From an uncultured Gammaproteobacteria bacterium (lineage in GTDB: Bacteria > Patescibacteriota > Patescibacteriia > 2-12-FULL-57-11), in NCBI GenBank assembly GCA_964648865.1, contig CAZYLV010000002.1, positions 79,272 through 143,271 on the forward strand: a DNA stretch of 64,000 bases, read 5' to 3'. Position 1 is the first letter of the stretch, and every line of letters starts with the position of its first letter. Made by a program: the position numbers and the translations under genes. The notes beneath the pieces were generated by a model. The model was given only the letters and a program-made list of their open reading frames with translations. It searched no databases and was not told the DNA's origin. This document shows positions 6,172-25,093 of the stretch, piece after piece.

Positions 6172-6173
6172 CC

Positions 6174-7121: not shown

Positions 7122-7142
7122 CACGCGCAGGACGGGGACGGG

Positions 7143-8003: not shown

Positions 8004-8028
8004 GCGGTCCCCCTGGGACCGCTTTTTC
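8004..8028. terminator. Bidirectional intrinsic terminator between convergent genes
   Basis: Hairpin GCGGTCCC-CCT-GGGACCGC followed by CTTTTTC. Confidence 0.55.
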
Positions 8029-9409
8029 ATTGCCCCTTGGCGCGGACGATGATGTTGAGCGTCCGCAGCAGGATGAAGAGGTCGAGCGGCACGCCTCGAT
8101 GCTTGACGTAGTAGAGGTCGTACTGGAGCTTCTTGAGGTTCTGCGCGATGGTGTTGGCGTAGGGGAACTCGATCTGCGCCCAGCCGGTGAGCCCGGGCCG
8201 CACCAGGTGGCGCATGGCGTAGAACGGCATCTCGCGCTCCAGCTCGGCCACGAACTCCGGCCGCTCCGGCCGCGGGCCGACGAAGCTCATCTCGCCCTTG
8301 AACACGTTCCAAAGCTGCGGCAGCTCGTCCACCCGCGTGGCCCGCAGCAGACGCCCGAGCGGGGTGACGCGCGGGTCGCCCTTCTCGGCGAAGCGCGCGC
8401 CGTCCTTCTCGGCATCGCGCACCATGGTGCGGAGTTTCCACATGCGGAACCCCTTGCCGCCACGGCCCACCCGGACCTGCGAGAAGAAGACCGGCCGTCC
8501 CTGCGTCAGGAGCATCGCCAGCAGCACGATCGGGAGCAGGACGACGCAGAGCGCCAGGCCGACGAGGGCCAAACCGACGTCAAGCGCGCGCTTGAAGAGG
8601 TCTCCGGCGTGCTTCTCGGCCTCGCGCAGGTTCTCCAGGAACCAGGCATGCGTGATGGCGGCCACCGGGACGCGGCGCGTGATGGTCTCGGAAAAGGACA
8701 CGGCGTCGACGAAGCGCACGCCCAAGAAGACGCTCTCGTAGAGCTGGCGGGCGAGCTCCGGCGACTGCCGCGGCGAGGCGCCGAGCACGACCGTGTCGGC
8801 GCGGCTCTCGCGCACGCGGCGCGCGAAGTCGGCGAACCCGCGCACCGTGAGCGGCGGCGGGTCTTCCGGCAACCAGGTGCCGCCTTCCGGCAGGATGATG
8901 CCGGCCACGTCGTAGCCGAGCGCGGGATTCGCGCGCAGTGCGGGCAGCAGCTCGCGCACCTCGTCGCTGTCGCCGACGAAGAGCACGCGCTGGCGCAGCA
9001 GCACGCCGCCGAACAGCGCGTTATAGGCCGCGCGCCAGGACGGGAAGAGCAGGGCGAAGGTCGCCAAGTGCAGGAGGAGCGTCGTCTTGGGGGCGATGCC
9101 CACGAACGGCGTGAGGTAGAAGAAGCCGATGGCCAAGAGCGCGGCCACGGCCAACGACGCGAAGAACGTGCCGAAGAACCGCAGCGTGTTGCGCGCCGCG
9201 CGCAGGTCGTACAGGCCGTTGGCAGCGAAGGTCAGCAGCCACAGCGCGAAGACCGCGGAATAGGGGATGACGTGCTCCCCGAAGTCGGGCCGCACCCCCG
9301 CGGCCCCGAGGCCGCGCAGGGACACGGCGATCCAGAGCGACGCGTACAGGACAAGCGCGTCGCCCCCCAGGAGAATGGCCCGTTTCAGCTTGACGGCGCG
9401 CGTTTCCAC
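8027..9409 (-). CDS. Polyprenyl glycosylphosphotransferase (WbaP/CpsE-type bacterial sugar transferase) that initiates glycan assembly on undecaprenyl phosphate
   Basis: N-terminal TM segments, then the C-terminal signature FRMWKLRTM...GPRPERPEFV of the bacterial sugar transferase family. The likely start is the GTG at 9409 (METRAVK). The remainder of the 742-aa ORF is antisense to the TPR gene. Confidence 0.75.
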   Translation of the reverse strand: METRAVKLKRAILLGGDALVLYASLWIAVSLRGLGAAGVRPDFGEHVIPYSAVFALWLLTFAANGLYDLRAARNTLRFFGTFFASLAVAALLAIGFFYLTPFVGIAPKTTLLLHLATFALLFPSWRAAYNALFGGVLLRQRVLFVGDSDEVRELLPALRANPALGYDVAGIILPEGGTWLPEDPPPLTVRGFADFARRVRESRADTVVLGASPRQSPELARQLYESVFLGVRFVDAVSFSETITRRVPVAAITHAWFLENLREAEKHAGDLFKRALDVGLALVGLALCVVLLPIVLLAMLLTQGRPVFFSQVRVGRGGKGFRMWKLRTMVRDAEKDGARFAEKGDPRVTPLGRLLRATRVDELPQLWNVFKGEMSFVGPRPERPEFVAELEREMPFYAMRHLVRPGLTGWAQIEFPYANTIAQNLKKLQYDLYYVKHRGVPLDLFILLRTLNIIVRAKGQ

Positions 9410-9469
9410 ATGGTCCAATACATGCCGATTGGGCCGAACGTACCACAGGAAACCGCCCGCTTCAAGCCT

Positions 9470-10180
9470 ATGCGGAACCGTCTTTTGGTCAGTCTCCTCG
9501 TCGCCTTCGGCATCGTCGTCATCGCCGGCGCCGGCTGGGCCTTCGTGGGCCGCGGCTGGTGGGACGAGCGGCAGCTCTCCGCGGAGATCGCGGCGCTCAA
9601 GGCGGACCCGCGCACCGCCGAGTCCGCCGAGCGGCTCGAGAAGAACATGCAGCGCGTCGCCGAGGATCCGGCGGACGTCGAGGCGCTCATCGGCCTGGGC
9701 AACTCCTGGAAGCAGGTCTTCGACATGACCGGTGAGGACACGCACGTCGTCCGTGCCATCGCCGCCTATGAGCGCGCCGTCGACGCGAGCCAGGGCAAGA
9801 ACACGGTGGTGCTCTCCAACCTTGCCACGGCCTATCGTCTGGCCAAGCGGCCCCAGCAGGCCGAGAACGTGCTGCGCGAGGCCATCGCCGCCAACGCCGG
9901 CGACCCCACGCTCTATATCCAGCTCGTGGAGGTGCTGCGCATCGACCTCAAGCGCGGGAGCGAGGAGATCATCGACGTCTATCGCCTCGGCCTCGACCAG
10001 CTCGTGGACAACGCGCCGCTCGTGCAATCGCTGGCCATCTACCTGGAGGACATCGGCCGGCTGCGCGACGCGCTCACCTACTACAAGCTGCTCGCGCCGA
10101 CGTATCCGACCATCGCCGAGAAGGTCGCGGAATTGGAGCGCCGCATCGCGCAGGAGGAGTCCGAATCCGCCGCCCCATGA
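9470..10180 (+). CDS. Membrane-anchored TPR-like repeat protein
   Basis: One N-terminal TM helix, followed by helical repeats rich in A, L and Y (AYERA, ATAYRLA). It is divergent from the WbaP-like gene. Confidence 0.55.
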   Translation: MRNRLLVSLLVAFGIVVIAGAGWAFVGRGWWDERQLSAEIAALKADPRTAESAERLEKNMQRVAEDPADVEALIGLGNSWKQVFDMTGEDTHVVRAIAAYERAVDASQGKNTVVLSNLATAYRLAKRPQQAENVLREAIAANAGDPTLYIQLVEVLRIDLKRGSEEIIDVYRLGLDQLVDNAPLVQSLAIYLEDIGRLRDALTYYKLLAPTYPTIAEKVAELERRIAQEESESAAP

Positions 10181-12414
10181 ACCGCATCGCCCTCCGTGCG
10201 GGGAGCGTCGCCGTCGCGGCCGCGTGCCTGACGGGCCTGATGCGGCTCCCCGCATCCGCCGCCGCCCCGACTGCGGCCTTCGCCGTGCAGTTCTCCGGGC
10301 TCGAAGCGCCGGTCCGCTTGTCGGTGCCGGCCGCCGCCGCCGCGGAGACGCTCGCCGCGCTCCAGGCCGACCCGCGTGTCCGCATCGCCGAGCCGATGGC
10401 CTCCTACCGCGTCTCGGCCTTGGCCGCGAACGACGCGCATTTCGACGAGCAGTGGTATCTGCGCAAGGTCACTGCGCCGGACGCCTGGGACCGTTCGGTG
10501 GGCAGCGCCGACGTGGTCGTCGCCATCCTCGACACCGGCGTCGACGTCAGCCATCCGGACTTGCGTGACAACATCTGGCAGAACCCGCGGGAGATCGAGG
10601 ACGGGCGCGACAACGACGGCAACGGCCTGGTCGACGACCTCCACGGATGGAATTTCTACGACGGCAACGCCGAAGTCGCGCCCGTGTTCGAGTCCTTCAC
10701 CGCCACGGGCATCAACCACGGCACGCTCATCGCCGGGGAGATCGGCGCCATCGGCGGCAACGGGCAAGGCATCGCGGGGGTCAACTGGCGCGTCTCGCTG
10801 ATGCCCATCCGGGTGCTTTCCAGCTCCGGCATCGGCGACATCGTCCATGTGGTCGACGGCATAAACTACGCCATCCGCAACGGCGCCGACGTCATCTCGT
10901 TGAGCTTTTCCGGCCTCAACCGCAGCGCCATCCTCGACGACGCCATCCGCCGCGCAAACGAGGCCGGCATCCTGGTGGTCGCCGCCGCCGGCAACGACGG
11001 CAACGGCAACGGCGGCACGGACCTCGACCGGACGCCGCTCTACCCGGCCTGCTCCGACGGACCCAACGGCGAGAACTGGGTGCTGGGCGTGGCCGCCACC
11101 GACGAGGAGGACCGCAAGGCGCAGTTCTCCGATTTCGGCCGGCGCTGCGTGGACATCTCGGCTCCGGGCGTGCGCATCTTCAGCACGCTGGTGGCGCGCG
11201 CCGACCAGCCCGGCTTCGGCCAAGCGTACGGCGGCTACTACAGCGGCACCTCGCTGGCCGCGCCGCTCGTGGCCGGCGCCGCGGCGCTCCTCAAGTCCTA
11301 CAGCCCGGGGCTGACCCTGCCTGCGCTGCGTGACCTGCTGCTCGCCAGCGCCGACGGCATCGACCCCGCCAACCCCGCCTACGCCGGCAAGCTCGGCCGC
11401 GGCCGGCTCAACATCGCGCGCGCCCTCACCTTGGCGCCGACCTCCATCGCGCCGCAGCCTCCGGGAGCGCCCGTCGCGCCCCCCGCGCCGGCCACCGGGC
11501 AGGGCCTGCAGGCGGTCGTCACGGCGAGCGGTCCGGGCACGGCGTCGAGCGTGGCCTTCCGCGGCATCGACGGCGTGACCTTGGCGTCGTTCGCCCCCTA
11601 CGCCGCCGGTTTCCGGGGCGGCGTCCTGGCCCAGGCGGGCGACGTCGACGGCGACGGCAACTTCGAGATCGTCACCGTCCCGGGCCCCTCCGGCGGCCCG
11701 CACGTGCGCGTCTTCACCTTGGGCGGCACGCTCAAGTCCGAGTTCTTCGCCTACGAGTCCGCCTTCCGCGGCGGCTTGTCGCTGGCGGTGGAGGACGTCG
11801 ACGGCGACGGCATCAGCGACATCGTCGTCAGCCCGCTCGCCGGACGGGCGCCGGAGGTGCGCGTCTTCGATGCGGGCGGGGCGCGCAAGGCCTCCTTCCT
11901 GGCGTACGCCTCGGGTTTCCGCGGCGGGGTGCGCGTCGCCGCGGGCGACGTCGACGGCGACGGCGACGCGGAGATCGTCACCGTGCCGGCCTCGGGCGGC
12001 GGGCCGCATGTGCGCCTCTGGCAGGGCGACGGTGGCGTCTTCTCCGGCTACTTCGCGGAGGATCCCGGCCTGCGCTCCGGCTATCTCGTGGCCATGGGCG
12101 ACGTCAACGGCGACGGCCGCGCCGACATCGGCGTGCTCGATGCGGTCAACGGGTCGCGCATCCGCTTCCGCTCGGCCTACGGCGTGCTGGTGGGGGAGAT
12201 CGAGATCGAAGGCATCGGCAAAGGCTTCACCTACGCGCTCGCCGACGTCAACGGCGACGGCCGCGCGGACCTCATGCTCGGCGTCCAGCCGACGGGCCGC
12301 CTGATCCTCCGGAGCTACGACGTGGTCGGCAAGCTGTTGCGCGAGGCGACCATCGGTGCCGGCACGGCGACGAGCGAAGTGCGCGTGGCGCCGGTCACCG
12401 GCTTCGTGCTCTGA
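10177..12414 (+). CDS. Secreted subtilisin-like (S8) serine protease with C-terminal FG-GAP/VCBS beta-propeller repeats
   Basis: A signal peptide and the Asp, His and Ser catalytic motifs (AILDTGVD, HGTLIAGEI, GTSLAAPLVAGAAAL), followed by at least six GDVDGDG...EIVT repeats. Confidence 0.85.
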   Translation: MNRIALRAGSVAVAAACLTGLMRLPASAAAPTAAFAVQFSGLEAPVRLSVPAAAAAETLAALQADPRVRIAEPMASYRVSALAANDAHFDEQWYLRKVTAPDAWDRSVGSADVVVAILDTGVDVSHPDLRDNIWQNPREIEDGRDNDGNGLVDDLHGWNFYDGNAEVAPVFESFTATGINHGTLIAGEIGAIGGNGQGIAGVNWRVSLMPIRVLSSSGIGDIVHVVDGINYAIRNGADVISLSFSGLNRSAILDDAIRRANEAGILVVAAAGNDGNGNGGTDLDRTPLYPACSDGPNGENWVLGVAATDEEDRKAQFSDFGRRCVDISAPGVRIFSTLVARADQPGFGQAYGGYYSGTSLAAPLVAGAAALLKSYSPGLTLPALRDLLLASADGIDPANPAYAGKLGRGRLNIARALTLAPTSIAPQPPGAPVAPPAPATGQGLQAVVTASGPGTASSVAFRGIDGVTLASFAPYAAGFRGGVLAQAGDVDGDGNFEIVTVPGPSGGPHVRVFTLGGTLKSEFFAYESAFRGGLSLAVEDVDGDGISDIVVSPLAGRAPEVRVFDAGGARKASFLAYASGFRGGVRVAAGDVDGDGDAEIVTVPASGGGPHVRLWQGDGGVFSGYFAEDPGLRSGYLVAMGDVNGDGRADIGVLDAVNGSRIRFRSAYGVLVGEIEIEGIGKGFTYALADVNGDGRADLMLGVQPTGRLILRSYDVVGKLLREATIGAGTATSEVRVAPVTGFVL

Positions 12415-12418
12415 GCGT

Positions 12419-12853
12419 ATGCGGGCGCTGTTCTGGCAGACCGTCCGCTACGGGCTGGTCGGCGCCTCATCGACGGCGGTCGATTGGCTGATCTACTACG
12501 GCCTGACGCGGTCCGTGCCGCAGCTGCGCGAGTGGTACCTGGCGGCCAACGTCTGCTCCTTCTCCCTTGCCGTGATCTGGGGGTACCTCATGCATCGGCG
12601 TTTCACCTTCCGTGCCGGCGGCGCCCACCGCCATCAGTTCCCCAAGTTCCTTACGGTCACGCTCATCGGGTTGGGCATCAACAGCGCGACGCTGCACGTC
12701 GGCGTCGCGGTCCTCGGCCTCTACGACCTCACGGCCAAGGTCGCGGCCGTCGGCGTGACCGCCGTCTGGAACTACCTCGGCCAGCGTTTTTGGACGTTCC
12801 GCTTGTCCGCACCCCCCGGCGGCCCGTATACTGGGCCTGCCGACACGCCGTAG
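12419..12853 (+). CDS. GtrA-family membrane protein (flippase-associated subunit for polyprenyl-phosphate sugars)
   Basis: Small four-TM protein with the GtrA-like motifs (VRYGLVGASSTAVDWLIYY, WNYLGQRFWTF). Confidence 0.7.
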   Translation: MRALFWQTVRYGLVGASSTAVDWLIYYGLTRSVPQLREWYLAANVCSFSLAVIWGYLMHRRFTFRAGGAHRHQFPKFLTVTLIGLGINSATLHVGVAVLGLYDLTAKVAAVGVTAVWNYLGQRFWTFRLSAPPGGPYTGPADTP

Positions 12854-12857
12854 ACCT

Positions 12858-13877
12858 ATGCCTGTCACGCCCATATTCGAGAAGAAGAACGTGCTCGTCA
12901 CCGGAGGCGCAGGCTTCATCGGTTCGCACCTCTGCGAGAAGCTGCTCAAGGACGCCAAGGTCATCTGCCTGGACAGCTTCATCAACTCCGACGAGCGCAA
13001 CATCGACCACCTCCTCCAGAACCCCAACTTCGAGTTCATCCGCTGGAACGTCAACGAACCGCTCGACCTGGAGCAGTTCCCGGAGCTCGAGAAGTTCAAG
13101 GTGCGCTTCCAGGGCATCCAGGAGATCTACCATCTCGCCTGCCCCACGAGCATCAAGAATTTCGACCAGTTCCGGATGGACACGCTGCTCACCAACTGCG
13201 TGGGCATGCGCAACGCGCTCGACCTTGCGGTCAAGTACAAGGCCAAGTTCCTGTACGCCTCGAGCTCCGTGGTCTACGGACCGCGGCGGCCGGACGGCCT
13301 GCCCTTCCGGGAGGACGACATCGGCGCGGTCAACCACATGACGCCGCGCGGCTGCTACGACGAGGGCAAGCGCTTCGGCGAGACCATGGTCCAGACCTAC
13401 GCCGAGGTCTACGGGATGGACGCCAAGATCGCGCGCATCTTCCGGACCTACGGTCCGCGCCAGCGCCTCTTCGACGGCGAGCTGTTCTCGGACTTCATCG
13501 TCAACGCCATCGACGGCAAGGAGCTGACCATCTACGGCGACGAGACCTTCACGACCTCTCTGACCTACGTGGATGACGTCGTCGACGGCATCCTCAAGCT
13601 GATGAAGGCGCCGGCGACCATCGGGCCGGTCAACTTGGGCACGGACCACGACGTGCGCATCGTCGACGTGGCCAAGCTCATCTTGACGCTGACCCAATCC
13701 GGCTCCAAGGTCGTCTTCGAACCGGCCCTCATGTTCCTGACCCCGCTCGGTCTGCCCGACATCGGCAAGGCCAAGGAGCGCCTCGGCTGGTTGCCCTTGG
13801 TGCGGCTGGAGGACGGCATCAAGAAGGCCATCGACTACACGCAGGCCCATCGCTCGCTCATCTCCTTCGGCACATGA
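12858..13877 (+). CDS. UDP-glucuronate decarboxylase / UDP-xylose synthase-like SDR (NAD-dependent epimerase/dehydratase)
   Basis: VLVTGGAGFIGSHL, and the YHLACPTS...TN region resembles the UXS/ArnA decarboxylase core. Confidence 0.65.
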   Translation: MPVTPIFEKKNVLVTGGAGFIGSHLCEKLLKDAKVICLDSFINSDERNIDHLLQNPNFEFIRWNVNEPLDLEQFPELEKFKVRFQGIQEIYHLACPTSIKNFDQFRMDTLLTNCVGMRNALDLAVKYKAKFLYASSSVVYGPRRPDGLPFREDDIGAVNHMTPRGCYDEGKRFGETMVQTYAEVYGMDAKIARIFRTYGPRQRLFDGELFSDFIVNAIDGKELTIYGDETFTTSLTYVDDVVDGILKLMKAPATIGPVNLGTDHDVRIVDVAKLILTLTQSGSKVVFEPALMFLTPLGLPDIGKAKERLGWLPLVRLEDGIKKAIDYTQAHRSLISFGT

Positions 13878-14560
13878 AGACCGTCGCGGTCGTCCCGGCA
13901 TGGAACGAGGCGCAGGCCATCGGGGAGGTCCTCGATGGCCTTTTGCCGCGCGTCGACGCCATCGTCGTGGTCGATGACGGTTCGAGCGACCGCACGGGCG
14001 ACGTGGCCGCAGCCCGCCTGCGCGCCCATCGGCTGCGCGGCGGGGTGGTGCGCCATGTGCTGAACCGCGGTTTGGGCGCGGCGCTGGCTACCGGGATGCG
14101 CGCGGCGCTCGACGACGGCGCCGACGCCATCCTCACCTTCGACGCCGACGGCCAGCATCAGAGCGATGACGTGCCGGCCGTGCTCGCGCCCATCAAGGAG
14201 GGGAGCGCGGACGTGGTCATCGGCAGTCGCCTGCTCAATCCCCAGGGCATGCCGCTCGTGCGGCGCATCGCCAACCGCATCGGCAACGCCGTCACGGCCC
14301 TGCTCTTCGGCGCGCGCGTCACGGACTCGCAGTCCGGGCTGCGCGCCTTCTCGCGCCACGCCGCCGAGCGCATCGAAATCCGCACCGATCGGATGGAAGT
14401 CTCCTCTGAGATCGTGGCTGAGATCTTCCGCCACAAGCTGCGTCTCACCGAAGTGCCCATCAAGAGCGTCTACAGCCGCTACTCGATGTCCAAGGGCCAG
14501 GGCTTCTTGATGGGGCTGAAGACGTTGGGGCGGCTGATTATTCGGAGGGCGTTGCGATGA
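13874..14560 (+). CDS. GT2 polyprenyl-phosphate glycosyltransferase (GtrB/dolichol-phosphate-mannose-synthase-like)
   Basis: VVDDGSSD and DADGQH (DxD) motifs. The gene order GtrA, GT2, DUF2304 matches this family's usual context. Confidence 0.8.
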   Translation: MKTVAVVPAWNEAQAIGEVLDGLLPRVDAIVVVDDGSSDRTGDVAAARLRAHRLRGGVVRHVLNRGLGAALATGMRAALDDGADAILTFDADGQHQSDDVPAVLAPIKEGSADVVIGSRLLNPQGMPLVRRIANRIGNAVTALLFGARVTDSQSGLRAFSRHAAERIEIRTDRMEVSSEIVAEIFRHKLRLTEVPIKSVYSRYSMSKGQGFLMGLKTLGRLIIRRALR

Positions 14561-14901
14561 ACCTCTTCCTCCTCAAATACCTCGTCCCGCTCGTCGGCCT
14601 CATCGCCGTGCTCTTTGCCGTGCGGCGCTGGCGCAAGCGGGAGCTGCCGACGGGCCTGCTCGTCGCCTGGACGCTCTTGTGGGTCGCGCTCTCGCTCGTC
14701 GTGCAGCTGCCGCAGCAGACGGACGTGCTGGCTCGCATCCTCGGGGTCGGCCGCGGCGTGGACGTGCTGCTCTTTGCCTCCGTGGTGGCGCTGGTCCTCC
14801 TGCTGTTCCGTGTCTATCTGCGCATCGAGCGGATGGAACGCGAGATCACGACCGTGGTGCGCGAGCTGGCGCTGTTGCGTGCGGAGCAGGACAAGAAATG
14901 A
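14557..14901 (+). CDS. DUF2304-like small membrane protein, typical partner of GtrB-type GT2 enzymes
   Basis: ~114 aa with three TM helices and a charged C-terminal helix. Its start overlaps the upstream gene (ATGA). Confidence 0.6.
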   Translation: MNLFLLKYLVPLVGLIAVLFAVRRWRKRELPTGLLVAWTLLWVALSLVVQLPQQTDVLARILGVGRGVDVLLFASVVALVLLLFRVYLRIERMEREITTVVRELALLRAEQDKK

Positions 14902-14943
14902 CCTTTGGGATTCCTCGCTCCCGCTCGGAATGACAAATCCCGC

Positions 14944-16035: not shown

Positions 16036-16083
16036 GCCGGAGCATTGCCACGGTCACCCTTTTCCCGTAGGGTGCGGCCTGTT

Positions 16084-17247: not shown

Positions 17248-19262
17248 AGATCGCGCTCTTGGGCGGGCTGTACCCGCCGCACGGCGGCGGCGCCGAGCGC
17301 GCCACGGAGCTCCTGGCGCGCGGCTTGGTCGCGCTCGGGCACGAGGTCCATGTGCTGACCACGGCCCGCGAGGCCGTGACGGAGACGCGCGACGGCGTCG
17401 TGGTGCATCGCCTCGCGCCGCGGCATGCCTGGATCGGCGACGTCTTTTCCCGACCGTTCGCGGAACGGGCGCGGTGGAACGTCGCGGAACTGCTCGACCG
17501 TCGCATGACCGCGGCGATCGTGCGTGAGCTCGAGCGGCTCGCGCCCGCGCTGGTCATCACTTCCAACCTGAAGGGGCTCGGCGGAGCGCTGCCGGCCGCG
17601 CTCGGCCGCCTGCCGTGGCCGTACGTCCACGTCGCCCATGATTTCGAGCCCGTCGAACCGATGCTGCTCGGCGTCCATGACCGCGCCGACCGGGTGCGCA
17701 ACCGCGCCTGGGCCGCGCTCTCGCGCCGGCGCTGGGGCGCGCCGGATGCTGTCGTCTACCCGAGCGCCTGGCTGCAGCACTTGCTCGCGACGCATCGCGT
17801 GTTCGCGGGCAGCCGGCAGGCGGTGATCCCCAATGCGGTGGATGTGTCCGGTGTAGGGGCGTATGGCAATACGCCCCTACCGAATGGACCGTTCCGCCTG
17901 CTGTTCATCGGCCAGCTCGAGCCGCACAAAGGGGCGCTCTGGGCGGCCGAGGCGCTGCGTTCCTGGGACGCGCCCTGGACGCTCGACGTCGTCGGCGAGG
18001 GGAGCGAGCGTGCCGCCATCGACGCCAAACGCGACGGCCGCATCCGCACGCACGGGCGGCTCGCCGGCGCCGCGCTCGAGGAGCGGTGGACCCAGGCCGA
18101 CGCGCTCATCGTCCCCTCGCGCTGCCTGGAGAACGCGCCGCTGGTGGTCTTTGAGGCCGCGGCACGGCGCGTCCCCGTGGTGGCCGCGGACGTCGGCGGC
18201 ATCCCGGAGTGGGTGCTGCCCGGAGAGAACGGCTGGCGGTTCGCCGCCGAGGACGGCAAGGCCTTCCGTTTCGCGCTGGCCACGGCCGCGGACCCGACGC
18301 GCCGCGCGGCGTTGCGCTGGCAGCAGCTGCCGCCGTTGCGCACGCCCGAGCAGTACGCACGGGAGATCTTGGCGCTCGCCCCGCAGGCGCCGACCGCACC
18401 GCCCGTGGCGCCGGCCCCCGGCATCCTCGACCTGCTGCCCGCAGACCTGTCCGGTTTCAAGAAAGACGAGGCGCATTACCACGACCACGCCACGCACGAC
18501 GCCGTGCACGTCCATCAGCTCAACGCCTTCCGCAACCGCTTCTATCACGCCCGCATCTTCCGGCATCTGCGTCCGGTGGCGCCGGACGGTTGGGTGCTGG
18601 AGCTCGCAGGCGGCAGCGGCGAGGACGGCGCCGATGCGGTGCGGCGCGGGCTGAAGGTGATCGAGACGGACATCTCCAAAGGCGCGGTCGAGGATGCGGT
18701 ACGGACGCTCTCCGCCGTGCCGGGCAGCGACGGCCGCTTCATCGCCGCGACCATGGACGCCGAGCGCATCCCGTTCCCGGAGGGGAGCGTCGCCGGCGCC
18801 TGGATGACGGCGAGCTTCCACCACGCCGAGGATCCCGCGGCCGTGCTGCGCGAGGTCCGTCGCGTGCTCGCGCCCGGCGCGCGGTTCGCCGCGGCCATCG
18901 AGCCGCATCGCCTGTACTTCGGGACGATCAACTTCTTCAAGCCCGCGCTCGACGCGTTGCTCGGCAGGCGTGCCGAGAAGTCCGTGGCCGACGAGGAGCA
19001 CAGCGGCTTCTGGCGCGGCGAACTGCGTGCGCATTTCGAGAAAGCCGGCTTCACCGACATCCGCGTCGAGCCGATGTGGTTCACGGCCGGCATCCTGCAT
19101 TACAAGCTCGAATTCCTCTCGCGCCTCTTCAAGACGGAACAGCGGCTGCGCGTGCCGTTGTGGATCGAGAAAGCGTGCGTGTACTTCGACGAGTTCGTCT
19201 TCCGTCTGCCGGGCGGCGTGTATCTCGCCTGGCACTGGACGGCGTCGGGCAGGAAACCCTAG
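17244..19262 (+). CDS. Bifunctional GT4 glycosyltransferase fused to a C-terminal class I SAM-dependent methyltransferase
   Basis: The GT4 half contains FEAAARRVPVVAADVGGIPE. The methyltransferase half contains VLELAGGSGEDG (motif I) and VLAPGARF (post-I). Confidence 0.75.
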   Translation: MKIALLGGLYPPHGGGAERATELLARGLVALGHEVHVLTTAREAVTETRDGVVVHRLAPRHAWIGDVFSRPFAERARWNVAELLDRRMTAAIVRELERLAPALVITSNLKGLGGALPAALGRLPWPYVHVAHDFEPVEPMLLGVHDRADRVRNRAWAALSRRRWGAPDAVVYPSAWLQHLLATHRVFAGSRQAVIPNAVDVSGVGAYGNTPLPNGPFRLLFIGQLEPHKGALWAAEALRSWDAPWTLDVVGEGSERAAIDAKRDGRIRTHGRLAGAALEERWTQADALIVPSRCLENAPLVVFEAAARRVPVVAADVGGIPEWVLPGENGWRFAAEDGKAFRFALATAADPTRRAALRWQQLPPLRTPEQYAREILALAPQAPTAPPVAPAPGILDLLPADLSGFKKDEAHYHDHATHDAVHVHQLNAFRNRFYHARIFRHLRPVAPDGWVLELAGGSGEDGADAVRRGLKVIETDISKGAVEDAVRTLSAVPGSDGRFIAATMDAERIPFPEGSVAGAWMTASFHHAEDPAAVLREVRRVLAPGARFAAAIEPHRLYFGTINFFKPALDALLGRRAEKSVADEEHSGFWRGELRAHFEKAGFTDIRVEPMWFTAGILHYKLEFLSRLFKTEQRLRVPLWIEKACVYFDEFVFRLPGGVYLAWHWTASGRKP

Positions 19263-21325
19263 CGTCGATAGACGAACACCGTCACCGAATCGTCCACCTC
19301 GAACACGTCGTCCGCCTCCCGCATCGCCTCAGCCGCGATGCGGGCGCTGTCTTTCCAGAAGGCGTTGACGACGAAGTAGGCTTCCTCCACGACGTTCGCT
19401 TCCATGGCCCGTTGCGCGGTCGCACGGGTGGGCGCGGCGTTCATCTCGAGGAAGAGGGCGTTGAGCTCCGGCGCGCCTGACTCGTTGGCGTAGGCGAAGG
19501 GGATGCCGGGGAAGGAGACGAAGCCGTGCTCGCGGATGGCGGCAGCGGCGATGGTCTGGTCGGCCAGGACGATGTGCCGACGGCCTTCGGCGTGCGCCTC
19601 GATCCACTGCGCCGCGGCGACGGCGCCTGCGGAGACGGCGTACCCTTTGGATGGCTCGATGCGGTCGACGCGCGGGAAGGAGACGTAGGTCGTGGCCGCG
19701 ACCAGCGCCGCCAGCATGCCCGCGGATGCCAGGCGGCTCGCGACGTGGCGCGCCAGCCGCTCCCACAGGAAGACGAGTCCGGCCCCGGCCACCGGCAGCA
19801 GGACGACGGCGGCCAGTTCGACGAGCCGGGCGCGGAACGGGAAGGCCGCGGCACCGACGTCGCCGGCTTCCGGGAAGCGCAGGAATTGCAGGAGCAGGAA
19901 GGCGAGGATCAATCCGCTCGTGGCCGCCTGGAGGGAGCGGATGCCTGCGCGCCAAGCGGGCGGTGCGTTGCGGGCGGCGAACAGCATCCCGCCGACCAAT
20001 GCAATCGGGACCGTGGCACGCCAGAGGTAGGGAAGATCCAGGACGAGGTCGCCGGAGGGGGCGAACGGCGGCCAGCTCGCCGCGAGCGAGCGGAGCGCGT
20101 CGAAGGGGGCGAAGGTCCACGCGATCCTCATGCCGCCGACGAGCGCGTTGGCGATGAACGCGGCCGGGACGCCGAGGGCGGTCAGCGCGAACCCGGCCGT
20201 ACGGGCGAGGCGCTCGGGGAGACCGGGCTTCTTCCGTTCGGCGACGATGAGCAACAGCAGCCCGAGCGTGGGGATGCCGACCAGCGGATGCACGGCCAGC
20301 GCGGCCAGCGTCCCGGCGACGGCCGGTGCGAGCGGGAGCGCACCGGCGCGCCAGGCGATGCCGGCGCCGGCCACGAGCAGCGCAAAGAGGTAGGCCACGC
20401 CGGTCGGCGTGGTCGCGGCGTAGGCCCCGAAGGGCAGGAGCAGCGGCGCGAGCGCGGCCAGGCGGTGGCCGGCCTTGGCGGTCATGCCGCGCGCGGTCCA
20501 GGCGCACACCAGCGGCGCGAGGATGGCGAAGCCGAGCGGCACGGCCAGGCGATCGAGCGGGATGTGCGGCAGGAGCGTGACGCGGGAGAGCAGGGTCACC
20601 AGCGCGTACTGGCCGATGTAGTACGGCGTCTTGGGCTCGACGACGCCCTCGCGCAGGATGATGCCCTCGGCCGCCTGGTGGACGAACTGGTCGAAGCCGT
20701 ACCCGATGCCGTAGACGGCGAGCGCAGGGGAGGCCGCCACGAACGCCAGGAGGATGGCGGCCGGCAGGGCGGCGCGCGTCTTGCCGCGCACCAGCAGGGC
20801 GACAAGCGGCAGCCCGGCGGCCGCAAGCAGCGTGAAGAACGCCGGGGAGACCGTCTGCCACGGCGACGAGACGGCGGTGAGCGTCCGGCCGGCAGCGAGG
20901 ACGCCCATGGCGGCCAGAAGCACGGCGCCCGCCAGGCCGACGAGCGCGACGTCCATGAGCGGCGGCGCGGGGCTCCGGATGATGCGGAAGACGGGCACGA
21001 CCTGCGTCCGCCAGGCGAGCACGGCGGCCAGCGCCGCCGTGCCGACCCAGAGCACCATGCAGGAGACCGGCGAGAGGTCGACCGCCGCGTAGAGCCCGGC
21101 TCCGGCGACCATGAACCAGCACAGCAGCAGGAAGGTCCCGCCGAGGTGCTGGTCGAGCAGGCCGCGGCCCCGGAAGAAGATCGCCCCCAACGCCGCCGCC
21201 TCGAGCAGCAGGAGCGCCGCTGCCGAGACCGCGGCCAGGACCGGGACATCAAGAAAAACCGCGAGCAGGTTCGCGGCTAGGAGGGCAAAAACGGCCGTGC
21301 TATAGTGCCTCGGTACCAATTGCAT
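19259..21325 (-). CDS. Large polytopic membrane protein (~689 aa, 14 or more predicted TM helices) with a C-terminal soluble domain. Candidate GT-C-fold glycosyltransferase or polymerase.
   Basis: Long hydrophobic stretches across the N-terminal ~520 aa and a hydrophilic C-terminal ~170 aa. The opposite-strand ORF 19526..21280 is Arg/Gly/Glu-rich and was rejected. Confidence 0.6.
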   Translation of the reverse strand: MQLVPRHYSTAVFALLAANLLAVFLDVPVLAAVSAAALLLLEAAALGAIFFRGRGLLDQHLGGTFLLLCWFMVAGAGLYAAVDLSPVSCMVLWVGTAALAAVLAWRTQVVPVFRIIRSPAPPLMDVALVGLAGAVLLAAMGVLAAGRTLTAVSSPWQTVSPAFFTLLAAAGLPLVALLVRGKTRAALPAAILLAFVAASPALAVYGIGYGFDQFVHQAAEGIILREGVVEPKTPYYIGQYALVTLLSRVTLLPHIPLDRLAVPLGFAILAPLVCAWTARGMTAKAGHRLAALAPLLLPFGAYAATTPTGVAYLFALLVAGAGIAWRAGALPLAPAVAGTLAALAVHPLVGIPTLGLLLLIVAERKKPGLPERLARTAGFALTALGVPAAFIANALVGGMRIAWTFAPFDALRSLAASWPPFAPSGDLVLDLPYLWRATVPIALVGGMLFAARNAPPAWRAGIRSLQAATSGLILAFLLLQFLRFPEAGDVGAAAFPFRARLVELAAVVLLPVAGAGLVFLWERLARHVASRLASAGMLAALVAATTYVSFPRVDRIEPSKGYAVSAGAVAAAQWIEAHAEGRRHIVLADQTIAAAAIREHGFVSFPGIPFAYANESGAPELNALFLEMNAAPTRATAQRAMEANVVEEAYFVVNAFWKDSARIAAEAMREADDVFEVDDSVTVFVYRR

Positions 21326-21349
21326 GGGGGCATCATAGCACGGCCGGAT

Positions 21350-21922
21350 ATGCGCGACCCCGCGATCCCGTACCCGCACGACCGGTTGCTGGCGGCGACC
21401 CTGCTGCGGCTCATCCCGCGCTGGGTCCAGCCCAACCACATCACCATCCTGCGCTTCCTGGCGACGCCCTTCGTCGTCTGGCTTGTCGCCGCCGGACATC
21501 TCTACGAGGGCATCGTCGCCTTCGTCGTCGTGGCCTCCACGGACGCCATCGACGGGGCCATGGCGCGCACCCGCAAGCAGATCACCGAGTGGGGGACGCT
21601 CATGGACCCGCTCGCCGACAAGCTGCTCATCGGCGCCATGGTCGTGGTCATCGTCTTCGAGCACGTCAATCCGATCCTCGGCGTCACCATCATCTCCCTC
21701 GAGGCGCTGATGCTCGTCGGCGGTTACATCCGCCTGCGGCGCGGCATCGTGAAACCCGCCAACACCTGGGGCAAGATCAAGATGATCCTGCAGTGCGCCG
21801 GCGTCCTGCTGCTGCTCGTCGCCGTGGCCACCGGCATCGACCTGTTCATCCCGGTGTCCGGTGCCGTCTTCGCGCTGGCGTTGGTCTTCGCCCTGGTCTC
21901 GCTGCTGACCCACGGCATATGA
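21350..21922 (+). CDS. CDP-alcohol phosphatidyltransferase family protein
   Basis: DAIDGAMAR...G...DPLADK matches D-G-x2-A-R-x8-G-x3-D-x3-D. Possible starts are 21305 or 21350. Confidence 0.75.
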   Translation: MRDPAIPYPHDRLLAATLLRLIPRWVQPNHITILRFLATPFVVWLVAAGHLYEGIVAFVVVASTDAIDGAMARTRKQITEWGTLMDPLADKLLIGAMVVVIVFEHVNPILGVTIISLEALMLVGGYIRLRRGIVKPANTWGKIKMILQCAGVLLLLVAVATGIDLFIPVSGAVFALALVFALVSLLTHGI

Positions 21923-23517
21923 GGCGTCTGTTGCTCGCCGCCGCGGCGTCCTTTTTGGTATCGACCTCGCTCCTCGCCTGGCAGAACGTCGCGCAGGCGC
22001 CATGGCGTTTCGATTGGCCGGATGAGACCGGCACCGCCTTCTTCCTGCGCCGCGCCGCCGCGGGACGCCCGCTGGCCGCGCCGGACCCGGACATCGCCGT
22101 GCTGGAGCGGCGGCTGCATCCGCGCAGCGTCAACGTGCTCGGCTCGTCGCTCGTGCCCGCCGGCTTCCTCGGGTTACCCATCCTCGGCGGCGCGGTCGGC
22201 CGCGTCCTGGGCCCTGGAGCGGCGCTCTTCCTGACTCCGCTGCTCGCCGCCGCCGCGGCGTTGGCCCTGGCGCGGGCCTTGCGCGGACCGCTCTCGGCGC
22301 GGCACGCGACGTTCTCGGCCGTGCTCTTCCTCGCGCACCCGGCGACGCTCTACTTCTCGAGCTTCTCGTTGCTGCCGAACGTCCCGTTCCTCTCCCTGCT
22401 CGTCCTGGGCGCTTCCGGCGCGGCGATCGCGCGCGACGCCCGCCGCTTCGCCGTCCCGCTCTCCGTGGCCGCGGGCATCGCCGCCGGCCTGGCCTTTGCC
22501 GTCCGTCTCTCCGAGGCCGTCTGGGCGGTACCGCCGCTCGCGGTCCTCCTCGTCTGGGCCTACCGCAAGCGCCCCCGCTCCGGGCTGGCGTGGGCCGCAG
22601 GCGCGGGCCTGGCGCTCCTGCCGTTCGTCTTCCTGCAACAGGCGCTCTACGGGTCGCCGCTGGCCGGATACGCGCGGCTCGGCGTCGACGGCGCGGTCCT
22701 GCCCACGGAGGCGGTCGGCGGCGCCTGGACGTTCCTGTTGCCGTTCGGCGTCCACCCGTGGCACGCGGCGGTGCGATTCTGGGACAGCTTCCTGCTGCCG
22801 TTCTGGTGGTACGCCCTGCCGGCGCTGGTCGGCCTGGCGCTGGCAGGCCATGCGGCCTGGGCCGAGCCGGTGCGCTCCCGCCGGATGTCCGCACGCGTCG
22901 CGCTCGCGGGCGGCTTGCTGGTCGCCGGTTATCTCGTGCTGCTCTACGGCTCGTGGGTCTTCGCGGATCCGCTGACGCTGCTGCTCAATACCGTCGGCCG
23001 TTCCTACGTGCGCTACTGGCTGCCGATCGCCCTGCTGATGGGCGTGGCTGCGGCGGCGCCGTTGGCGCGGCTCGAGGGCTTCCCGGAGCTGCGCGTGCGC
23101 ATCGTCGGCCGCCTGCTGCTCGGGGGCATGATCGCGGCCTCGGCGCTCACGGCCTTCGTCCTGCCGCGCGAGAGCGTGCTTGCGGTGCGCGGCCGCATCG
23201 CCGAGTACAAGCGCATGGCCGCCGCGGCCGAGGCGGTCGTGCCGGAGGACGGCATCATCCTCACCGAGCGGCTGGACAAGGTCTTTTTCCCGGAACGGCG
23301 CGTCATCGCGCTCGAGGGCAAGGTGGGGGACGATCGTCAGGCCGTGGAGCTGGTGGCCGCGCATGCCGAGGAGTACCGCTTCTACTTCGCGGACGCGCTT
23401 TCGGAAGACGAGGACATCGCCGCGCGGTCGGAGTTCTTGAAGCGCCGGATCCAAGCCACCGAGGTCGCCCGCCTGCGCGACGACGTCCGGTTGTACGCGT
23501 TGACCCCGCTCGAATGA
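21919..23517 (+). CDS. Polytopic membrane protein (~532 aa) with a C-terminal soluble domain. Candidate GT-C (ArnT/PMT-like) glycosyltransferase.
   Basis: About 11 hydrophobic helices, then a charged C-terminal ~130 aa. It lies in the same operon as the CDP-alcohol transferase. Confidence 0.5.
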   Translation: MRRLLLAAAASFLVSTSLLAWQNVAQAPWRFDWPDETGTAFFLRRAAAGRPLAAPDPDIAVLERRLHPRSVNVLGSSLVPAGFLGLPILGGAVGRVLGPGAALFLTPLLAAAAALALARALRGPLSARHATFSAVLFLAHPATLYFSSFSLLPNVPFLSLLVLGASGAAIARDARRFAVPLSVAAGIAAGLAFAVRLSEAVWAVPPLAVLLVWAYRKRPRSGLAWAAGAGLALLPFVFLQQALYGSPLAGYARLGVDGAVLPTEAVGGAWTFLLPFGVHPWHAAVRFWDSFLLPFWWYALPALVGLALAGHAAWAEPVRSRRMSARVALAGGLLVAGYLVLLYGSWVFADPLTLLLNTVGRSYVRYWLPIALLMGVAAAAPLARLEGFPELRVRIVGRLLLGGMIAASALTAFVLPRESVLAVRGRIAEYKRMAAAAEAVVPEDGIILTERLDKVFFPERRVIALEGKVGDDRQAVELVAAHAEEYRFYFADALSEDEDIAARSEFLKRRIQATEVARLRDDVRLYALTPLE

Positions 23518-24011
23518 CCTCCCGCACCCAGGCCATAGCCGGCATCGCCTTCAGTGCCGTTGCCCTGCTCGGCCTGCTTGCCGCGGACGGGTTCTTCTCC
23601 CGGACGTGGACGCTTCGGCACCCCATCACGGGCGGCACGTCGCAGCTCTCGCCCTTCGGCCCGCCGACCCGGCTCGCCGGCCGCACGGTGGTGGCCGAAC
23701 CGCTGTACGTGGACGCGCGCATCCCGGTCTTCTTCCGTCGCGTCTCGGTTGAGGCGCGGCTGCTGAACTCCGCGTACGACCCGAGCATGGCGCGCATCGC
23801 CATCGAGCTCCCGGGCGGCGGCCTCCATTTCCTGCCGACGACCGTCGAGGTCTCTCCGATCGACGCCGGCTTCGTCCTTCGGGCCGAGGGCGACATCGCC
23901 GACCTTCCCGTCGAGGCGCGGCGCTTCCGTTTCCTGCTGTCCGTGCCGGGCGTGACGTCGGAGCGGCCGCTGACGCTCGACTCCTTCACCGTCACCGCAG
24001 CGCGGCTATGA
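23514..24011 (+). CDS. Hypothetical membrane-anchored protein
   Basis: N-terminal TM helix and no recognisable motifs. Its start overlaps the upstream stop codon. Confidence 0.4.
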   Translation: MTSRTQAIAGIAFSAVALLGLLAADGFFSRTWTLRHPITGGTSQLSPFGPPTRLAGRTVVAEPLYVDARIPVFFRRVSVEARLLNSAYDPSMARIAIELPGGGLHFLPTTVEVSPIDAGFVLRAEGDIADLPVEARRFRFLLSVPGVTSERPLTLDSFTVTAARL

Positions 24012-24331
24012 CCTTCCTGACCGTCGCCACCTGGCTCGTCGTGACCATCACGCTGCTTGAGGTCGTCGACCCCGGCATCTTCTCCACGGCGCTGCCGCTG
24101 CCTGTGTTGTGGGTGGCGCTGCTCGCGTCGTGGCTGGTGCATGGGCGGAAGGCGGAGCGGGGGAGACCCACCCCTCCGCCGGTACGCATCGCCTTGACCG
24201 TGGGGGTCGGGCTCTCTACCATTGCGATTGCCGTCCTCCTCGCTTCCGGGGCGCCGTACGCCCTGCCTGCCGCGCTCGCGGCCGGGGCTGCCGCGGCCGC
24301 CGTCTGTCGGACGCTCATGGAGTCGAGCTGA
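24008..24331 (+). CDS. Hypothetical small membrane protein (three TM helices)
   Basis: Hydrophobic 107-aa ORF in an operonic position. Confidence 0.4.
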   Translation: MTFLTVATWLVVTITLLEVVDPGIFSTALPLPVLWVALLASWLVHGRKAERGRPTPPPVRIALTVGVGLSTIAIAVLLASGAPYALPAALAAGAAAAAVCRTLMESS

Positions 24332-24343: not shown

Positions 24344-24679
24344 ATGCCTATGCCGACCACCCGCTACGACAAGATCGTCCGCGACCGCATCCCCGAGCTC
24401 ATCGCGGCCAAGGGAGGCTCGCCCGTCTCCCGCGTCCTGGCGCCGGATGACTTCGCCCGGCTGCTGCGCGAGAAGCTCGTCGAGGAGGCGCGCGAGCTCG
24501 TCGGCGCCCAGACCTACGACGCGCTCGTGGCCGAGCTCGCCGACGTCTGCGAGGTCGTCGCGACGCTGCAGCGCATCCACGGGGTGAGCGATGAGACGCT
24601 CTCCGGGGTGCGTGCCGCCAAGGTCGCCGAGCGCGGCGGCTTCGACGGCCGCGTCTTCCTGGAATCCGTGACCGAATGA
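24344..24679 (+). CDS. MazG-like / phosphoribosyl-ATP-pyrophosphohydrolase-like nucleotide pyrophosphohydrolase
   Basis: The N-terminal YDKIVRDRIPELI motif is typical of the all-alpha NTP pyrophosphatase family. Confidence 0.6.
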   Translation: MPMPTTRYDKIVRDRIPELIAAKGGSPVSRVLAPDDFARLLREKLVEEARELVGAQTYDALVAELADVCEVVATLQRIHGVSDETLSGVRAAKVAERGGFDGRVFLESVTE

Positions 24680-25092: not shown

Positions 25093-25093
25093 T

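Follow-up and report, generated by a model that had tools for sequence, protein, structure and literature searches.

A stretch of 64,000 nucleotides from contig CAZYLV010000002.1 (assembly GCA_964648865.1), hereafter referred to in its full length as the window, was found to carry a gene cluster with the content of an extracytoplasmic glycosylation system, including two large polytopic membrane proteins, designated GTC688 and GTC532, that are predicted to be glycosyltransferases of the GT-C fold. The G+C content of the window is approximately 70% and long spurious open reading frames (ORFs) are common in it; genes were called from the pattern of G+C content at codon positions (GC3), with each call verified by domain searches against Pfam and NCBIfam. 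The cluster consists, in order, of genes for a polyprenyl-phosphate glycosyl-1-phosphate transferase (PGT), a TPR protein, a subtilisin-type protease (S8), a GtrA-family protein, a sugar-nucleotide enzyme of the short-chain dehydrogenase/reductase (SDR) family, a family 2 glycosyltransferase (GT2), a DUF2304 protein, a further GT2, a family 4 glycosyltransferase (GT4), a GT4-methyltransferase fusion, GTC688, a CDP-alcohol transferase, GTC532, and two proteins termed u165 and u107. All are encoded on the plus strand except PGT (8027-9439) and GTC688 (19259-21325), which are the minus-strand genes within the cluster region; the plus-strand operon begins with the TPR gene (9470-10180), and PGT is divergent from it.

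An earlier note, made from the letters of the sequence, had listed the parts of a glycosylation island at this position, and the Pfam and NCBIfam matches bore out the listed genes, with domain E-values spanning 1e-13 to 1e-62 and lying far beyond chance. The SDR gene (12858-13877) and the TPR gene had been overlooked in that list. The island had also been described as one same-strand block, which is contradicted by PGT, placed on the minus strand by codon-position G+C content and domain matches, and by the 688-amino acid (aa) gene, likewise a minus-strand gene, and its limits of 8027-24331 proved too narrow, as sugar genes run further, with nucleotide-sugar genes at 146-7994 and 24676-30185. 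A 742-aa ORF (8027-10255) was rejected as a gene, its GC profile resolving it into the real minus-strand PGT and a shadow ORF antisense to the TPR gene. No ORF of 146-30185 gave a match to Wzx, Wzy, Wzz, O-antigen ligase, LCP or ABC-exporter families.

GTC688, a minus-strand gene product of 688 aa, is predicted to adopt a GT-C fold with about 17 transmembrane helices and a C-terminal extracytoplasmic alpha/beta domain. Its AlphaFold (AF2) model (pLDDT 84.5, pTM 0.86) shows a soluble C-terminal domain after about 17 long helices, and at least 14 transmembrane segments were recovered in a hydropathy scan, where a GT-C enzyme calls for at least eight helices. Foldseek comparison of the model with the PDB returned AftA (8if8; 9.5e-05) and STT3, both at a probability of 1.0, followed by PglB, AglB and DPY19, and every match at a probability of at least 0.5 was a GT-C enzyme, albeit with low TM-scores to these structures (0.37-0.40). 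Weaker matches included transporters (probability ≤0.2, TM-score approximately 0.1), WaaL (7tpg_B; probability 0.13, TM-score 0.13) and PimE. At the level of sequence, GTC688 alone matched no Pfam family at E ≤ 0.01 and no NCBIfam model, whilst 18 members of its family produced chance-level matches only against Pfam at E ≤ 0.1, and neither sequence nor profile searches with the family found a match in the PDB. There was likewise no significant hidden Markov model (HMM) match to described GT-C families (PMT, PMT_2, STT3, YfhO, DUF2079, Arabinose_trans and others), and no relation between the GTC688 and GTC532 families was detectable by hhalign (probability 24%).

Alignments of 80 and of 41 diverse sequences identified D212, located in the invariant motif GxGxDxFxH, as the sole invariant acidic residue in the membrane part of GTC688. 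Other conserved residues of the membrane part are P231, K232, Y235/Y236, G238, Y240, H346-P347, G350 and R500, and those of the C-terminal domain are P551, R552, D554, Q590, F602 and W657; a WWDYG-type motif was not present among the conserved residues. The helix map of the model, taken together with the positive-inside rule, would place the N-terminus inside the cell, while the loop 207-236 with D212 would lie outside, as would H346, R500 and the C-terminal domain; a conserved acidic residue in such a loop near the membrane (modified DxD) is a mark of GT-C enzymes. The D212 loop comes after about six helices.

A word-indexed search with GTC688 retrieved only 18 relatives, one of which was labelled Patescibacteria, and a further search with a profile of 41 sequences (A3) yielded 19 proteins that were essentially those already retrieved, adding no names and leaving the taxonomic census as it was. 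When 1.84 billion representative proteins were searched with a profile, at least 1361 clusters (50% identity) were recovered at E ≤ 1e-3 and 997 at E ≤ 1e-30, with nearly all members full-length at 640-750 aa. In a pattern scan covering one genome per GTDB species, at least 599 matching stretches were found, and at least 576 species genomes encode a GTC688 relative. The best 80 of these loci (L004-L083) were nearly all from Patescibacteria, also known as the Candidate Phyla Radiation (CPR), and included Falkowbacteria, Buchananbacteria, Uhrbacteria, Parcubacteria and Minisyncoccota; a complete genome, CP129476.1, is also represented among the loci. Synteny in these 80 loci was assessed by tblastn and ORF clustering, the informative loci being the 61 that extend for 7 kb or more on the GTC532 side and the 50 that extend for 9 kb or more on the opposite side.

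Gene order and orientation were kept across loci of 26-71% G+C (median 39%), which marks the cluster as serving a core function. The consensus order was found to be S8/FG-GAP, (GtrA), SDR, PpgS-like GT2, DUF2304, GT2, GT4, GT4 and antisense GTC688, followed by (CDP-alcohol transferase), GTC532, a u165-like partner, HIT or NUDIX, and Rml genes, with some loci retaining the GTC532-GTC688 pair alone. Traits particular to the lineage of the window are the methyltransferase fusion, GtrA, PGT and the TPR protein. With its 70% G+C the window is itself an outlier among cluster carriers, and the Patescibacteria of high G+C seem to form a small subclade (L001/L005, L004, L040); in GCA_004297205.1, the closest relative with a long contig, an EamA-type transporter lies within the cluster. 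Several third-party annotation (TPA) co-assembly contigs (L012, L015, L022, L033, L034 and others) are titled ‘uncultured Gammaproteobacteria’, and one Lysobacteraceae, and carry the same Patescibacteria-type cluster; these titles are probably placeholder or mis-binned taxonomy.

GTC688 keeps its antisense position throughout, being opposite in strand to every other cluster gene in all loci (same-strand, 0/66 and 0/108). In the window, its stop codon shares the letters CTAG with that of the convergent GT4-methyltransferase gene and its ATG sits 24 bp from the likely ATG (21350) of the divergent CDP-alcohol transferase gene. Median gaps across the 80 loci, calculated from longest-ORF calls, were 48 bp on the divergent and 5 bp on the convergent side, such that promoters must lie within adjoining coding sequence.

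GTC532 (21919-23517, plus strand) is a polytopic protein of 532 aa with a predicted GT-C fold, and appears to be a divergent relative of PMT_2 (GT39/GT83-like). It adjoins GTC688 in 57 of the 61 loci. The protein itself had no Pfam match at E ≤ 0.01, including PMT and PMT_2, and no PDB match by sequence, and profile searches of the PDB with its family gave nothing meaningful, but of 19 homologues retrieved by word-indexed search nine matched Pfam PMT_2 (PF13231; best 6.3e-07), and one homologue has been named ‘glycosyltransferase family 39 protein [Patescibacteria]’ by NCBI. There was also a weak NCBIfam match to the LA_3751/3752 putative glycosyltransferase family (1.3e-05; 24 bits against a cutoff of 200). 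The AlphaFold model (pLDDT 87.5, pTM 0.89) had 22 PDB neighbours at E ≤ 1e-3, all of which were GT-C enzymes; ALG12 (2.4e-06), ArnT (6e-06, TM-score 0.55), AglB, STT3, ALG9, AftA, Pmt4 and PglB were each matched at a probability of 1.0, and WaaL was not among the structural matches. Directly after the first transmembrane helix (residues 2-25) lies P34-D35-E36, in the first loop predicted to be extracytoplasmic, which is 97-98% conserved in 64 sequences, and R196, E199, D350, R365, D453 and K454 are also conserved in 64 orthologues.

The view in the earlier note that both large membrane proteins fit no known family thus holds for GTC688, and fails for GTC532 on account of its PMT_2-matching homologues; the HMM comparison with GT-C families divided them in the same way, linking GTC532 through these homologues and leaving GTC688 with no match. 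The companion suggestion that both may be novel GT-C enzymes gained weight from the comparison with solved GT-C folds, given that the only high-probability PDB neighbours of both models were GT-C enzymes, led by AftA and STT3 for GTC688 and by ALG12, ArnT, AglB and STT3 for GTC532.

Coupled translationally to GTC532 is u165 (23514-24011, plus strand), an N-terminally anchored extracytoplasmic protein with one transmembrane segment and no Pfam match, which may be an accessory subunit of the GTC532 enzyme. Its position is occupied elsewhere by an ORF family with a median of 179 aa (24 loci) or by a family of approximately 494-516 aa (17 loci); the Pfam-less u165 family has a form of about 170 aa (L006:7382-7894) and one of about 516 aa (L074:1760-3310), with motifs common to both near the two ends. 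The adjoining u107 (24008-24331, plus strand), a membrane protein of small size that has three predicted transmembrane segments and no Pfam match, is conserved only in close high-GC relatives. Between GTC688 and GTC532 lies a PgsA-like CDP-alcohol phosphatidyltransferase (21350-21922, plus strand, with a possible GTG start at 21305; PF01066 1.3e-29, 104 bits against a 22-bit cutoff), which scored 81.5 bits with the PgsA model TIGR00560, short of its equivalog cutoff of 109.1, and was found in 17 of 61 loci, representing a subset of lineages.

On the cytoplasmic side of the cluster, the soluble 228-aa GT2 (13874-14560, plus strand; PF00535 9.2e-24) is of the PpgS/GacI/DPMS/ArnC type. Its top NCBIfam matches were PpgS (1.7e-46, 158.5 bits), AglJ, dolichol-phosphate hexose transferase and ArnC, and its top PDB matches were DPMS (5mlz; 1.2e-12) and ArnC (4.7e-11), so that it is most like, and predicted to be, a polyprenyl-phosphate glycosyltransferase. 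The following gene (14557-14901, plus strand) encodes a protein with three transmembrane segments of the DUF2304 family (PF10066 7.8e-23, above the 25.5-bit cutoff), to which GacJ and Rv3632 belong; the two genes overlap by 4 nt at the GT2 stop, indicating translational coupling. The DUF2304 members GacJ and Rv3632 stimulate their GT2 partners GacI and PpgS (bioRxiv 10.1101/180810). The pair is conserved, with the PpgS-like GT2 present in 26 and DUF2304 in 22 of the 50 loci.

Three additional transferases follow this pair. A membrane-tethered GT2 of 376 aa (14905-16035, plus strand; PF00535 3.5e-13), with a transmembrane segment at approximately 265-296 and weak similarity to a rhamnosyltransferase (TIGR01556 3.4e-09), GlfT1 and MftF, was present in 25/50 loci. 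The retaining-type GT4 (16045-17247, plus strand; PF00534 8.3e-42) matched MshA (5.9e-26), PimB' (5.6e-21) and PimA (6.5e-17) in the PDB and was found in 36/50 loci, the two GT4 genes of the cluster occurring in 37 and 36 of the 50. The second of these is in the window a 672-aa fusion (17244-19262, plus strand) of a GT4 (Glyco_trans_1_4 3.2e-21) with a C-terminal S-adenosylmethionine-dependent methyltransferase (Methyltransf_11 1.6e-13), the latter domain resembling a D-glucose O-methyltransferase (6uv6; 1.3e-07). Only the high-GC subclade has the fusion, with 692 aa in GCA_004297205.1; its orthologue in most other loci (for instance L009, L038 and L082) is a GT4 of about 400 aa with no domain fused to it.

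At its conserved head the cluster carries a secreted subtilisin (10177-12414, plus strand; Peptidase_S8, PF00082 2.8e-47) that also has a Pro-rich linker and, at the C-terminus, an FG-GAP propeller (FG-GAP_3 2e-17). A signal-peptide-like N-terminus and the D/H/S motifs are seen in its sequence, and it occupies the same position in 29 of the 50 loci with enough flank. The SDR gene (12858-13877, plus strand; PF01370 5.8e-43), which encodes an NDP-sugar epimerase/dehydratase and adjoins the GT2 gene in 32/50 loci, probably supplies the donor for the neighbouring 228-aa GT2; its position corresponds to that of Rv3634c/Cgp_0391 in the PpgS locus (PMC9671496). The GtrA-family protein (12419-12853, plus strand; PF04138 2.2e-26), a small membrane protein, is a candidate flippase of lipid-phosphate sugars, and in many other loci the S8 and SDR genes directly adjoin without GtrA between them. 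The TPR protein (plus strand; TPR_14 4.4e-07) is membrane-anchored through one N-terminal transmembrane segment and had no tblastn match in the other loci.

The minus-strand PGT, of approximately 460-470 aa, is a Bac_transf protein (PF02397 7.7e-62) of the WbaP/WcaJ-like kind, scoring 343.7 bits with the NCBIfam model TIGR03025 (cutoff 295.55). Its scores fall under both the WbaP-specific cutoff (TIGR03022; 185 versus 403 bits) and the WcaJ-specific cutoff (260 versus 411 bits), on which account it is classified by sequence as a generic PGT of the exopolysaccharide (EPS) type; the Bac_transf assignment agrees with the ‘WbaP-like initiating transferase’ listed earlier, and the protein is not WbaP proper. 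The gene is lineage-specific, as just 2 of 80 other loci have it close to the cluster, and neither PGT nor GtrA is a conserved cluster part in other genomes.

Downstream of u107 lie genes for a weakly MazG-like protein of 111 aa (24344-24679, plus strand) and a HIT-family protein (24676-25092, plus strand; PF01230 6.1e-27), the latter found in 34 of 61 loci and replaced in some others by a NUDIX gene. These are followed by a block for the supply of dTDP-L-rhamnose (24899-30185, plus strand), comprising RmlB, RmlC, two HAD hydrolases, RmlD and an RmlA-like nucleotidyltransferase, in which the domains GDP_Man_Dehyd (1.1e-71), dTDP_sugar_isom (5.2e-65), RmlD_sub_bind (6.7e-74) and NTP_transferase (3.2e-47) were matched. 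Rml genes flank the cluster in other loci too.

Taken together, the genes present, the predicted folds and conserved motifs, the size of the family and the synteny make it likely that the cluster represents a form, shared across the Patescibacteria (CPR) lineage, of the multi-component transmembrane glycosylation systems that monoderm bacteria have, because the GT2 is nearest to lipid-phosphate sugar synthases, DUF2304 is coupled to it, and the cluster resembles the PpgS and Wps loci. The PpgS-like GT2, its coupled DUF2304 and the GT-C folds also support the earlier reading of a lipid-phosphate sugar made inside the cell and transferred outside by a GT-C enzyme. What we infer about the identities of donor and acceptor, the sequence of steps and the roles of the two GT-Cs is as follows. 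The Rml enzymes and the SDR epimerase would supply nucleotide sugars inside the cell, where the 228-aa GT2, aided by DUF2304, would load a sugar, probably a hexose or N-acetylhexosamine, onto polyprenyl monophosphate. By analogy with Wps, the membrane-tethered GT2 and the two GT4s might then extend this lipid-linked sugar to a short rhamnose-containing oligosaccharide, drawing on dTDP-rhamnose, a detail that we favour tentatively and hold to be possible rather than probable; alternatively, the 376-aa GT2 and the GT4s could build a separate chain begun by the neighbouring PGT. In the high-GC lineage of the window, the O-methyltransferase linked to one GT4 would methylate the glycan.

The lipid-linked glycan may be flipped by GtrA in the window genome, with other or unlinked flippases serving other lineages, and would be consumed as donor outside the cell by GTC532 and GTC688. 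The conserved neighbourhood with a polyprenyl-phosphate-sugar synthase suggests that GTC688 may use a polyprenyl-phosphate-linked donor. From its likeness to ArnT, PMT and ALG enzymes, GTC532 most likely transfers a monosaccharide from a monophosphate donor, and GTC688, given its likeness to AftA and STT3 and its C-terminal domain, most likely polymerises the glycan or ligates it to the final envelope acceptor; both assignments are tentative. A wall- or membrane-associated glycopolymer is favoured as the acceptor, and the secreted S8/FG-GAP protease may act on, or belong to, the same surface structure.

Several points weigh against this interpretation. The donor, acceptor and product are read from homology, the support otherwise consisting of gene content, folds, motifs and synteny. 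The 228-aa GT2 misses the PpgS equivalog cutoff (158.5 versus 370 bits), hence the N-acetylgalactosamine (GalNAc) specificity of PpgS is not transferable to it. The best solved relatives of the GT4, MshA, PimA and PimB', use non-polyprenyl acceptors, and a glycolipid route fits them equally. The cluster lacks a consistent flippase gene (GtrA in 9/50 loci), PGT, the putative starter of any diphosphate-linked chain, is not conserved with it, and the S8 protease is tied to glycosylation by its conserved position alone.

Of the alternatives, two concern the acceptor and overlap with the general statement of transmembrane glycosylation. The first, which we consider rather unlikely, is protein O-glycosylation, in which a PMT-like GTC532 and possibly an oligosaccharyltransferase-like GTC688 would modify pilins, S-layer proteins or the S8/FG-GAP protease with donors made by GT2/DUF2304. 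PMTs carry a DE motif in loop 1, which the P-D-E after the first helix of GTC532 resembles, and the PMT_2 matches of the GTC532 homologues, one of them named as a family 39 glycosyltransferase, are consistent with such a role, as are the occurrence of STT3, AglB and PglB among the structural neighbours of both proteins and the co-conservation of a secreted protease with a Pro-rich linker. However, the GTC532 of the window itself lacks a PMT or PMT_2 match at E ≤ 0.01 and counts the lipid and glycan transferases ArnT, ALG9/12 and AftA just as much among its structural neighbours, whilst GTC688 has no WWDYG-type motif among its conserved residues. The three further cytoplasmic transferases and the Rml genes also suggest a glycan larger than PMT-type mannosylation needs.

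The second, a membrane-anchored lipoglycan resembling phosphatidylinositol mannosides (PIM), lipomannan (LM) or lipoarabinomannan (LAM), is less probable still. Its phospholipid anchor would be provided by the CDP-alcohol transferase and its first sugars, on the cytoplasmic face, by the GT4s, with flipping and elongation by the GT-Cs from polyprenyl-phosphate sugars of the GT2, in keeping with the mycobacterial paradigm of GT-C enzymes that make lipoglycans with polyprenyl-phosphate-mannose (PMC3485146). The placement of a CDP-OH_P_transf gene between the two GT-C genes speaks for this possibility, together with the GT4 relatives MshA, PimB' and PimA, the rank of AftA as top structural neighbour of GTC688, and the weak match to PimE. 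Yet the CDP-alcohol transferase is present in only 17/61 informative loci, is nearer to PgsA (81.5 bits) than to phosphatidylinositol-phosphate synthase (44.4 bits) and may be housekeeping, the GT4 similarity is generic, and the Rml genes and the rhamnosyltransferase-like GT2 have no counterpart in PIM/LM synthesis.

It is very unlikely that one or both of the large membrane proteins are transporters, flippases or scaffolds whose GT-C likeness is a modelling artefact. Low TM-scores for GTC688 (0.37-0.40), its approximately six extra N-terminal helices, transporters in its match list and the frequent absence of a recognisable flippase from the cluster would be compatible with such a function, but transporter matches reached a probability of at most 0.2 and a TM-score of about 0.1, with all matches at ≥0.5 being GT-C enzymes, and GTC532 has 22 GT-C matches at E ≤ 1e-3 in addition to its PMT_2 sequence relatives. 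The invariant set of Asp, His, Lys and Arg residues, outward-facing in the predicted topology, is moreover typical of a catalytic site and not of a transport path. An ordinary Wzx/Wzy- or ABC-dependent O-antigen/EPS locus, with the large proteins as a Wzy polymerase and an O-antigen-ligase-type enzyme, is highly improbable in that, although such loci typically contain a WbaP/WcaJ-type transferase together with GT2, GT4 and Rml genes, no ORF of 146-30185 matched Wzy_C, O-antigen polymerase, Wzx, Wzz or an ABC exporter, WaaL (7tpg) reached a probability and a TM-score of 0.13 each against GTC688 where GT-C enzymes reached a probability of 1.0, the initiating transferase is not conserved with the cluster, and the match of the large proteins to Wzy or O-antigen ligase that the earlier note had named as the refuting case was found neither by Pfam or NCBIfam nor by fold. 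A pentofuranose three-component system (GT136, PMC11127046) was also considered and rejected, since its polyprenyl phosphoribose synthase and MATE flippase have no counterparts among the annotated genes.

The logic of a transmembrane glycosylation system and most of its parts are known already from three- and four-component systems, GacI/J/L, PpgS/Rv3632/Rv3779 and Wps. The Wps locus of Lactococcus lactis encodes a GacI/J-like starter pair (WpsA/WpsB), the transferases WpsC-F, the flippase WpsG and two GT-Cs, the polymerase WpsI and the ligase WpsJ (PMC9574508), and the CPR cluster resembles it in its GacI/GacJ-type GT2 with a small activator, several cytoplasmic transferases, two outside GT-Cs and nearby rhamnose genes. 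Unlike Wps, it has no Wzx flippase, WpsH-like co-polymerase or rhamnan ABC exporter, its GT-Cs are, as far as testable, unrelated in sequence to those of Wps, the S8/FG-GAP protease and the anchored u165 are conserved parts of it, and its host is a CPR bacterium. With GacI/GacJ/GacK/GacL of Streptococcus pyogenes (bioRxiv 10.1101/180810) the cluster shares a GT2 polyprenyl-phosphate-sugar synthase with DUF2304, an outside GT-C and a rhamnose-rich locus; the Gac system adds a single N-acetylglucosamine (GlcNAc) onto polyrhamnose with one GT-C and a Wzx flippase, whereas the CPR cluster has two GT-Cs, three additional transferases and a GtrA-type flippase or none in the cluster.

In Mycobacterium tuberculosis and Corynebacterium glutamicum, the PpgS-Rv3632-Rv3634c-Rv3779 system modifies arabinogalactan with galactosamine (GalN) through the GT-C Rv3779/Cgp_0658, and C. 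glutamicum adds a further GT2, Cgp_0396 (PMC9671496). An NDP-sugar epimerase, a PpgS-like GT2, DUF2304, an additional GT2 and an acceptor-side GT-C are common to that locus and the CPR cluster, but the CPR GT2 is not an equivalog of PpgS and the GT-C likeness to Rv3779 is one of role. We know of no arabinogalactan in CPR. All three component types of the GtrA/GtrB/GtrC logic are present in the window, which is similar in this respect to GtrA/GtrB/GtrC and CsbB/GtcA/YfhO (PMC8035078, PMC9574508), where a GT-A enzyme makes a C55-P-sugar, a GtrA-family protein flips it and a GT-C transfers it. In contrast to GtrB and CsbB, the 228-aa GT2 has no C-terminal transmembrane helices and is accompanied by a separate DUF2304 partner instead; unlike in the three-component systems, GtrA is dispensable across the family and neither GT-C matches YfhO/GtrC-type Pfam models. 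The predicted polytopic core, outward first-loop acidic residue and C-terminal extracytoplasmic domain are shared with solved GT-Cs (AftA 8if8 and STT3/AglB/PglB for GTC688; ALG12/ALG9, ArnT 5f15, AglB/STT3 and Pmt4 for GTC532), from which the two proteins differ in a sequence identity of 10-15%, with GTC688 having no sequence relation and about six extra N-terminal helices, and GTC532 being linked to PMT_2 through its homologues only.

In literature searches, which are not proof of its being unpublished, no description of this cluster or of the GTC688 family in CPR was found. As far as could be ascertained, the apparently undescribed elements are a large, sequence-orphan Patescibacteria family of GT-Cs whose antisense position is fixed, the near-obligate association of this family with a PMT_2-like GT-C and an anchored partner, and its co-conservation with a secreted S8/FG-GAP protease. 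CPR/Patescibacteria account for much of bacterial diversity and live attached to other microorganisms, and to our knowledge almost nothing is known of their cell-envelope chemistry. The cluster points to an undescribed core surface glycan of these ultrasmall organisms, and it offers concrete targets in the GT2/DUF2304 pair, the two GT-Cs with their candidate catalytic residues D212 and D35/E36, and the co-conserved protease. The GT-C superfamily would gain at least 1361 clusters (50% identity) that are missed by current Pfam, NCBIfam and PDB sequence searches, and ‘hypothetical protein’ labels in hundreds of genomes could be replaced by a testable function.

A bolder proposal, which at present seems to us doubtful, is that GTC688 founds a sequence-orphan GT-C family that is a near-signature gene of a large part of Patescibacteria and assembles, together with GTC532, u165 and S8/FG-GAP, the main surface glycoconjugate. 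Were this true, such a chemically undescribed glycoconjugate of ultrasmall episymbionts could mediate host attachment or envelope integrity, and a conserved regulatory arrangement would lie behind the invariant antisense placement of GTC688 and the near absence of intergenic space around it.

Other genes of the window border the cluster or lie at a distance from it. The upstream block (146-7994) encodes a CMP-sugar cytidylyltransferase, a 532-aa NeuB-cupin fusion, a GFO/IDH/MocA oxidoreductase, a histidine phosphatase, an APH-like kinase, a UDP-glucose dehydrogenase, a UXS-like SDR and a NUDIX protein, which suggests that a nonulosonic-acid-type sugar and UDP-xylose or UDP-glucuronate may also be made. 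The UDP-glucose dehydrogenase ORF (approximately 5290-6171) has a partial N-terminal and a central domain with no match for the C-terminal domain and overlaps both neighbouring ORFs, and may be truncated, frameshifted or mis-called at its start. Just past the Rml block (30353-32623) are genes for a 311-aa protein without a Pfam match and a minus-strand PEGA-domain protein of 436 aa, both of which are possible envelope proteins.

An Rfam scan of the window detected two tRNAs only and no regulatory RNA, a cobalamin riboswitch included. At 35191-40230, genes for a BtuR/CobO corrinoid adenosyltransferase, a DUF4430 protein and a DUF6580 protein come after that of a class II (B12-dependent) ribonucleotide reductase, which has ATP-cone and TSCPD domains; the arrangement looks like a module for B12 salvage and use. 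The region 52968-59735 encodes a PBP2/FtsI-type transpeptidase, a Mur ligase and then two Ser/Thr protein kinases, and is, in a CPR genome, a neighbourhood for cell-wall synthesis and regulation.

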